This document shows positions 45,889 through 46,796 of a stretch of 64,000 bases of DNA, piece after piece. Source of the stretch: Candidatus Kaiserbacteria bacterium RIFCSPLOWO2_01_FULL_50_24 (lineage in GTDB: Bacteria > Patescibacteriota > Minisyncoccia > Phycocordibacterales > UBA2100); the NCBI GenBank assembly GCA_001783335.1, contig MFLU01000016.1, positions 688 through 64,687 on the forward strand. The letters are read 5' to 3'. Numbering within the stretch: the stretch's first letter is position 1; every line of letters starts with the position of its first letter. Below the pieces are notes generated by a model. That model was not told where the DNA came from. It searched no databases and saw only the letters and a program-made list of their open reading frames with translations. The position numbers and the translations under genes were made by a program.

Positions 45889-46796
45889 ACAAGTTTTTCT
45901 ATAAGCGCGGTGAGCGAATGCTCGCGACGCACATACTCCCGGTCGGCGGATTCTAGATGTTTGAGCGCAGGGTCGCGGGTAACGACTGGCAAACCGCACG
46001 CAAGCGCCTCCAAAACCACCTTGTCCAAACTCCCCGTCTCGCTCGTGTGCAGCAAGACAAAAGCTTTTCTGTATTCATCACGCAGTTGCAGTTGCGTCAT
46101 AGCGCCTAAAAACTCGACGTGGGTGTTAAGTGAGTGTGTCAGTGCCTCGAGATTTTTCCGCTCCGGCCCCTCCCCCGCGATGTGCAAAACTCGGCCCTGC
46201 TCGGTGGACATATGGATAGCAAGGTCGTGTCGTTTACTTTTATTAAGCCGCCCCGCAGAGAGCGCGTGCTCTCCTCGCGGCACGTTTGGATCAGGCGTGA
46301 AAAAATCGGTATCAATGCCATGGCCAACCACCTGCACTTTTTTGCTCGGGAGTCTAAAACTTTCACGCGACGCGGTAAAAATAATGTCGGCAAATTTTTC
46401 TGCTATCCGGAGTTTAAGATCCACACTCTTGTGCGTGTACCATAGTGCCGTTTTTTTGCCCAACAAGCGCCACAGCCATCCGGCCATCACCAGATACTCC
46501 GGATTCATGTGCACAAAAACCGCATCGTAGTTGCGCCGCTTCTGCCAGATTAGTCGCCAAAATCGAAAAACGTATACAAGGCGGTGCAGAAATTCCAAAT
46601 TCCAAATTCCAAATTCCAAAGATTCCTTTCCGAGCGAATGCACCGCAACATTTTCAGGCAAATTGTGAACGCTTTCTTTCAAACAAATCACGTGTACTTT
46701 CTCGCAATTTTTCGCAAATTCCTCAATCCAACGGTGAAAAAAACCGAGAACGGAATCGTTCTGGTCTACAACCTGCGTTACGATGAGAAGTCGCAT
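45867..46796 (-). CDS. GT4-like glycosyltransferase (short)
   Basis: Contains the heptanucleotide tandem repeat. C-terminal EALACGLPVVT motif. Confidence 0.55.
   Translation of the reverse strand: MRLLIVTQVVDQNDSVLGFFHRWIEEFAKNCEKVHVICLKESVHNLPENVAVHSLGKESLEFGIWNLEFLHRLVYVFRFWRLIWQKRRNYDAVFVHMNPEYLVMAGWLWRLLGKKTALWYTHKSVDLKLRIAEKFADIIFTASRESFRLPSKKVQVVGHGIDTDFFTPDPNVPRGEHALSAGRLNKSKRHDLAIHMSTEQGRVLHIAGEGPERKNLEALTHSLNTHVEFLGAMTQLQLRDEYRKAFVLLHTSETGSLDKVVLEALACGLPVVTRDPALKHLESADREYVRREHSLTALIEKLVWILKNK
46591..46618. repeat. Tandem heptanucleotide repeat (AATTCCA)x4 inside GT4 gene 45867..46796
   Basis: Minus strand reads GGAATTT x4, translated ...EFGIWNLEF... Gain or loss of one 7-nt unit shifts the frame. 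Confidence 0.7.

Follow-up and report, generated by a model that had tools for sequence, protein, structure and literature searches.

A heptanucleotide repeat in a Candidatus Kaiserbacteria glycosyltransferase gene, with one frameshifted three-unit allele among metagenome contigs

Repeat-mediated switching in described systems

The glycosyltransferase genes lgtC and lic2A of Neisseria and Haemophilus, like pglE, are switched ON and OFF in a stochastic and reversible way. The last of these encodes a glycosyltransferase of O-linked protein glycosylation in Neisseria meningitidis and was reported to be phase-variable by an intragenic heptanucleotide repeat (PMC7157529). It is the closest precedent for the locus described here, a GT4 gene of Candidatus Kaiserbacteria. 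In both cases a 7-base unit is located inside a glycosyltransferase gene for a surface glycan, and a change by one unit shifts the frame and turns the gene off. Unlike pglE, the present tract has four units only, is OFF in one of 21 contigs, has no phenotype assigned to it and belongs to an uncultivated groundwater organism of the candidate phyla radiation (CPR).

Four units can suffice for switching. As described in PMC2651432 (citing Zaleski 2005 and De Bolle 2000), Haemophilus influenzae hsdM contains a (GACGA)4 tract that changes from four to three units at high rate; as in the present gene, the unit is not a multiple of three and the change from four to three inactivates the gene. The same source describes tetranucleotide tracts in the LPS glycosyltransferase genes of H. 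influenzae. In that species the rates came from culture and the tracts were concentrated in contingency genes, whereas the array type found here was spread across housekeeping genes.

In PMC4679880 and PMC4692102, heptanucleotides are given as the most abundant long SSR class of bacteria (after Mrazek 2007), a slippage bias tied to the polymerase contact length is proposed for 7-base units, and GGGAATC of Xanthomonas, GGGGA(T/C)T of Nostoc, TAACTGA of Beggiatoaceae and the heptanucleotides of Calothrix are named as examples. The arrays reported below resemble the long SSRs of Mrazek 2007 in the excess of period 7 and in occurring sometimes as inverted pairs, and four units are likewise preferred in Xanthomonas. 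Those SSRs are mostly intergenic and under-represented in coding sequence, whereas many of the present arrays are located in ORFs, are translated in frame and have many different units.

Within the CPR, a hypervariable gene with a 9-base repeat was reported from Gracilibacteria (BD1-5), for which slipped-strand mispairing and population variability were discussed (PMC6851277). That locus also represents a repeat inside a gene of a CPR bacterium, but its unit encodes the tripeptide PTD and is a multiple of three, so that the protein varies in length instead of being switched ON and OFF; it is also long and breaks assembly (PMC6851277). Our literature search returned no report of repeat-mediated phase variation in CPR/Patescibacteria, this 9-base repeat being the nearest case.

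The repeat tract and the gene containing it

The four AATTCCA units that a sequence-only reading of this DNA had placed at 46591-46618 were found on the + strand as an exact 28-mer, with a single match in the window (the whole 64-kb stretch of DNA analysed here). None of 100 dinucleotide-preserving shuffles yielded a match, even when 3 mismatches were allowed. Tandem Repeats Finder delimited the array to 46590-46620 (period 7, 4.4 copies, 100% matches) with a score of 62, the highest of the window, and a regular-expression census of the 64 kb showed that it was the sole perfect repeat with a unit of at least 5 bases and at least 3 copies. The microsatellite reads (AAATTCC)4.4 on the + strand and (TGGAATT)4 on the gene strand. 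Four units are at the short end of the range among known phase-variable tracts. The four perfect units lie above the candidate threshold for heptanucleotides, at least three units, which was taken from PMC2651432.

The tract is located in an ORF of 309 aa on the minus strand (45867..46796), which has an ATG start and is in frame at four units. Its product scored 61.9 bits against Pfam Glycos_transf_1 (cut-off 26.4, E 7e-17) and 58.7 bits against Glyco_trans_1_4 (cut-off 27). The AlphaFold model of the protein, with a mean pLDDT of 90.5, matched the solved structures of BshA, MshA and PimB' at Foldseek E values of ~1e-14 to 1e-13. The Pfam scores above the gathering level and the match to the two-Rossmann-domain fold placed the protein among the GT4 (GT-B fold) glycosyltransferases, as had been claimed from the sequence. 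The exact 309-aa protein is deposited as OGG45310.1 and OGG73598.1 (NCBI, Candidatus Kaiserbacteria), and its 4,238 homologues are for the most part from Parcubacteria.

On the gene strand, (TGGAATT)4 begins at nucleotide 179 (codon 60), within the 5' third of the gene, and encodes residues 60-69, LEFGIWNLEF, which are preceded by S and followed by L. The repeat-encoded residues were the only poorly predicted part of the model (mean pLDDT of 56 for residues 61-70, and below 50 for 62-65), and they formed a loop in the N-terminal domain between a strand at 50-54 and a helix at 68-85. The length of this stretch varied by up to ~20 residues, as seen in 25 close homologues and in 80 orthologues of other species. 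By the model, the repeat encodes a predicted surface loop of low confidence, at a site of highly variable length in the family.

Gene calls of contig L001 were placed on the window through a 100% alignment, and Pfam was used to assign the neighbours. Upstream of the GT4 gene, a UDP-glucose/GDP-mannose dehydrogenase-like gene is located on the minus strand at 46778..47674 (L001 9123-10019). Its 3' end shares 19 bases with the GT4 start, which indicates one operon. Downstream, a class I SAM methyltransferase gene (45262..45831, minus strand; L001 10966-11535) starts 35 bases past the GT4 stop, and the pairing of the two genes is conserved. In some relatives GT4 is fused to the methyltransferase, as in the homologue P0109 (539 aa), suggesting that both act on the same sugar. 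The surrounding 20 kb form a glycan cluster, in which several GT4 and GT2 genes are accompanied by genes for epimerases, a GHMP kinase and a nucleotidyltransferase. The putative glycan phenotype of the GT4 gene is taken from annotation, and the gene is presumably dispensable.

Effect of unit number on the reading frame

The products of alleles with 0 to 8 units were derived by frame simulation. The unit TGGAATT is free of stop codons in all frames of both strands, and frameshifted products therefore end downstream of the tract. The four-unit allele gives the 309-aa protein, and alleles with one unit (302 aa) and seven units (316 aa) also stay in frame. With three units, and likewise with zero or six, translation runs into an out-of-frame TAA at 46550..46552 (minus strand) and gives a 79-aa product; this stop was obtained by simulation and was also read in the window sequence and in contig L011, described below. 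With five units (or two or eight), an out-of-frame stop at 46414..46416 (minus strand) is predicted to give a 129-aa product. The corresponding alternative-frame ORF, 46414..46605, is present in the ORF list of the window.

The truncation at codon 79 in the three-unit allele occurs ahead of all catalytic parts. The 7-base unit is not a multiple of three and lies inside the ORF, at codons 60-69, where a change of its number by one shifts the frame; the frameshift that had been claimed for the gain or loss of one unit was thus confirmed in both directions. Programmed ribosomal frameshifting was also considered as a candidate and was dropped, because the four-unit allele is already in frame and needs none.

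Unit number across contigs

Contigs with the GT4 gene were obtained from metagenome assemblies of JGI and ENA, which include one that bears the name of a 2016 aquifer data set. By exact-protein look-up, the four-unit gene was found in 20 contigs. The ten of these that were listed came from ten different samples, and all ten carried the four-unit tract. One further contig, L011 (ENA ERZ27254754, 13.7 kb), was found to have three units, and the gene was called there as two ORFs of 79 aa and 206 aa. The 79-aa ORF is located at 4699-4938; the 206-aa protein encoded on the same contig was returned by the homology search (P0001) and is identical to the C-terminal two thirds of GT4. The allele tally was therefore 20 of 21 contigs with four units (ON) and one with three units (OFF). 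The comparison of unit number between related strains, which had been proposed in advance, thus revealed a polymorphism between close genomes, on the single contig L011.

When L011 was aligned with the window over 10,186 bases, there were 0 mismatches and one gap, corresponding to the missing 7-base unit. Among the loci L001-L011 aligned to the window, this deletion in the tract was the only indel; four-unit backgrounds differed from the window by up to 29 SNPs in 16 kb, without indels. Exact look-ups of the products expected from zero, one, two, five, six, seven and eight units (N-terminal fragments and restart ORFs) gave no match, and a homology search with the 79-aa fragment returned, at high identity, only the fragment itself. 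Flank-anchored DNA scans of metagenome and genome contigs gave 0 alleles, and as these scans did not return the window's own contig or species either, they carry no information on allele diversity. A candidate for a frameshifted orthologue, P0131, was set aside as assembly noise, the coverage of its contig being 1.27x.

These data could also be read as a stable, neutral in-frame insertion, a tolerated low-complexity loop free of biologically relevant switching, with the three-unit contig being an assembly artefact or a dead-end loss-of-function mutant. The invariance of four units in 20 contigs with several SNP backgrounds is in line with this explanation, and a disordered, length-variable loop of the kind predicted would tolerate insertions. 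Moreover, L011 is a short-read MEGAHIT consensus, in which an assembly error is possible. However, the contig name implies a final k-mer of 141, far longer than the tract (31 bases), and a collapse of the repeat would therefore be unlikely. Furthermore, a lone indel which falls exactly on the tract and amounts to exactly one unit is a signature of slippage and not of random error. On balance, a stable insertion seems possible but doubtful.

Period-7 arrays in orthologous loci of Parcubacteria

The occurrence of similar arrays was inspected in 80 orthologous loci of other Parcubacteria together with the window, a glycan-rich sample of 574 kb chosen around the GT4 gene. Units of 4 (n=18), 5 (n=2) and 7 (n=7) bases were the only ones found when perfect repeats of 4-15-base units were counted from 3 copies upward. 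The 18 four-base cases are 12-base tracts, whose number was assumed to be near the chance level. At 4 or more copies, 7 was the only unit length left. Tandem Repeats Finder gave 16 period-7 arrays in the 574 kb and at most 3 arrays for every other period. Compared with units of 5-11 bases, period 7 was over-represented, as in the long-SSR class of Mrazek 2007, and the shuffled expectation was approximately zero.

Perfect four-unit heptamer tracts, all in frame, were observed in other GT4 genes of L072, L075 and L081, the last with three tracts in two genes. The period-7 arrays are located at 1045-1076, 1487-1517 and 2003-2035 of L081, 3486-3517 of L072, 3515-3544 of L075, 2424-2455 of L073 and 2377-2398 of L077; L073 and L077 have their heptamer array at a common ELRIxNY site. 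Most of the period-7 arrays of the glycan loci were in frame within GT4 genes and at recurrent sites, namely following the HGID motif, GDGPExKN or VVPI. The unit sequence changed from species to species, and at the orthologous site L072 and L075 had different units. Similar arrays were observed in intergenic DNA of another species, L053 (4072-4096). Look-ups of alleles with one unit more or less in the tracts of L072 and L081 had no power to show variation, as the record of each intact protein is limited to one contig. The choice of loci around GT genes accounts for the apparent concentration of heptamers in them.

(TGGAATT)n arrays in other metagenome contigs

The exact (TGGAATT)4 array was found in at least 120 metagenome contigs (L093-L212). 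Among the matches listed, there were ~127 (TGGAATT)n arrays, 98 of them with exactly four units and a few with up to 16. ORFs of at least 230 aa contained 62 of these listed arrays, and the Pfam families of the ORFs were mainly housekeeping families: class I aminoacyl-tRNA synthetases (5), MiaA (4), TsaD (2) and MnmA (2), and further TGT, AlaRS, PGK, PPDK, RsmH and an amidase. Only 2 of the 62 ORFs were assigned to GT4 and 3 to PMT_2. In the window itself, a degenerate heptamer array is likewise found in murC. Thus, neither the concentration in surface genes nor the avoidance of housekeeping genes that characterizes contingency genes was observed. Examples of hosts of the array are LeuS (L170, 5904-8564), MiaA (L095, 7603-8607), MnmA (L186, 575-1684) and a CCA-adding enzyme (L162, 3422-4363).

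Depending on its orientation, the array in these ORFs is translated into the peptide NSKFQIPNSKFQI or LEFGIWNLEFGIWN, and it was mostly the in-frame NSKFQIPNSKFQI that was found. The relatives of one MiaA example were from Microgenomates, Pacebacteria and Patescibacteria, with one hit labelled Clostridia, and they had related low-complexity peptides at several common sites. Besides (TGGAATT)n, the same contigs (759 kb, matches listed) contained 63 further period-7 arrays with many different units, approximately one per 12 kb; the contigs were unrelated and not picked by gene content, but they were picked for already holding one heptamer array. The persistence of intact arrays of equal length in essential genes is again in line with a stable insertion.

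Six candidates for genes split at a (TGGAATT)n array were noticed among the 120 loci listed. They had 57-64% GC and no recognisable protein on either side of the array, and the long frames were therefore taken as arising by chance. No convincing OFF-state split gene was found among the ~127 arrays listed.

Interpretation of the repeat

From the repeat inside a glycosyltransferase gene, a classic contingency locus had been claimed. In such a dedicated locus the repeat would be kept by selection, and reversible stochastic switching would diversify the surface glycan, with phage escape or modulated attachment to the host cell as the proposed benefit. The CPR consists of uncultivated bacteria with tiny genomes, for which a life attached to other cells is assumed; their surface glycans are therefore likely to play a central part in attaching to the host and in escaping phages. 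An OFF allele, found on a 10-kb background with no other difference, agrees with this proposal. So do the location of the gene in a large glycan cluster, the genomic context of which is different in the co-occurring strain L213, and the in-frame perfect four-unit heptamers in GT4 genes of other Parcubacteria (L072, L081). Precedents exist for a heptanucleotide in pglE (PMC7157529) and for the switching of a four-unit tract (PMC2651432).

However, the claim was not borne out by the wider comparison. Heptamers are general in these genomes, and (TGGAATT)4 is commoner in housekeeping genes than in glycosyltransferases. With this array type so abundant in essential genes, no selection for switching has to be invoked to explain why the tract is present. 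All contigs but one were ON at exactly four units, and no allele with one unit more was found. The arrays listed gave no convincing OFF-state split gene, and the concentration in GT genes came from a sample built around such genes. A contingency locus maintained by selection is therefore considered unlikely.

With a probability of roughly 0.5, we favour an incidental ON/OFF toggle of low frequency. The tract represents a genuine hotspot of slippage, for which one OFF allele was observed, adaptive phase variation being unproven. It appears to belong to a class of heptanucleotide repeats that extends across the lineage. The three-unit allele would have been formed by slipped-strand mispairing at replication, and the change between three and four units would be reversible. 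In the OFF state, one sugar-addition step would be lost from the cell-surface glycan. The tract itself most likely did not result from selection for switching, as 7-base arrays appear to populate CPR coding sequences whatever the gene function; their excess would fit the known slippage bias of bacteria toward 7-base units. Slipped variants would be purged from an essential gene, whereas they could persist in a dispensable glycan gene, and it is the presumed dispensability of the GT4 gene that would allow a null allele to survive. One slip would kill the enzyme and another would restore it, a toggle that phage or host selection may or may not exploit.

The natural ON/OFF pair at a glycan-gene repeat provides a concrete hypothesis that can be tested in existing Rifle-aquifer read sets. 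The in-frame 7-base arrays and perfect palindromes in many CPR genes, essential ones included, may matter more than this single locus. The arrays bear on the mutation of CPR genomes and on their odd low-complexity protein insertions; they also bear on annotation, since one slipped unit splits a gene call. We regard it as unlikely that lineage-wide 7-base arrays slip actively in CPR coding sequences and become true contingency loci in dispensable surface-glycan genes such as this one. If this were so, a phase-variation system would have been described for the first time in the CPR; it would provide ultra-small, probably host-attached bacteria with stochastic surface variation, and the GT4 loop, at which perfect in-frame palindromes occur in other species, would be a dedicated hypervariable site.

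Other repeats in the window

Four degenerate period-7 arrays were also detected in the window. They are AAATTAA x7.6 in intergenic DNA (57016-57067), AGCTTTT x3.3 at the 3' end of a TP_methylase gene (59332-59354), AGCTTAT x4.4 in the C-terminal part of a Mur ligase (murC-like) gene (60418-60448) and ACTACTA x2.9 (63310-63342). The first three are identical in L213, and the fourth lies beyond the reach of that contig. This identity between assemblies also agrees with the reading of the GT4 tract as a stable insertion.

L213 (6000-12510), which represents a co-occurring strain, was identical to the window from 60,881 down to ~54,880. The junction at ~54,880 falls just past a TrwB-like coupling-protein gene. 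Beyond it L213 carries LDcluster4, DUF2238, a TraG-like protein and purD, and no glycan cluster is found there, which indicates that the glycan-cluster side differs between the strains.

The intergenic region 57650-57890 is located between a DUF4015 gene and a two-gene operon, which encodes a 97-aa protein and a ParE-family toxin and is likely a toxin-antitoxin pair. An A/C-rich half of this region (AAATTCCAAG...) is opposed to a T/G-rich half of degenerate TTTGGAATTT heptamers, and the two halves form an imperfect inverted pair that is related to the GT4 tract. The sequences of two independent contigs stop inside heptamer-like intergenic arrays, at 57842 (L214) and 57848 (L215).

These relationships raise the idea that the heptamer is a functional DNA or RNA motif which overlaps the coding sequence and is kin to the TTTGGAATTT-like arrays at 57.65-57.89 kb. 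The 14-mer AATTCCAAATTCCA was found, with at most one mismatch, twice at 57793-57831 on the opposite strand, against an expectation of 0.02. Moreover, the intergenic arrays of L053 are similar, and inverted pairs of the (TGGAATT)n array were observed in high-GC contigs. However, no RNA family of Rfam matched anywhere in the window. The units vary freely at orthologous sites (L072 and L075), and 63 other heptamer arrays are present in the same contigs as (TGGAATT)n, as would not be expected if one particular sequence were recognised. In viral contigs the unit gave 1 match, compared with 6 and 6 for permuted controls, and GAAATTC gave 0. A functional motif is accordingly considered very improbable.

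Palindromes and toxin genes in the glycan loci

Perfect in-frame palindromes, with arms of 14-21 bases and loops of 0-10, were observed at the same GT4 loop in orthologues of at least seven other species. They are located at 3211-3255 of L091, 3182-3221 of L051, 3172-3207 of L027, 3187-3222 of L035, 3181-3224 of L075, 3154-3203 of L066 and 1686-1717 of L062. Between the related L051 and L027 several arm positions differ, and each palindrome is still perfect. Perfect palindromes with arms of 13 bases or more numbered 34 in the 574 kb, compared with 0 in a shuffle. The palindromes at the GT4 loop could have originated from fold-back duplication or from a small palindromic element.

A 30-base perfect palindrome, CCACATGTCTCCATATATGGAGACATGTGG, was also found in the window at 43602-43631, in frame, where it encodes residues 88-98 of a GT4 paralogue (42775..43893, minus strand). 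Its centre, CATATATG, is in common with the palindromes of L051 and L027. Immediately upstream of the gene for the ArsR/HTH_20-type regulator in the glycan cluster there is another 30-base perfect palindrome (45082-45111), by its appearance the operator of this gene. The cluster further contains, at 43903-44574, a gene for a YafQ-family toxin (87 aa) and an upstream 132-aa gene, which likely encodes its antitoxin.
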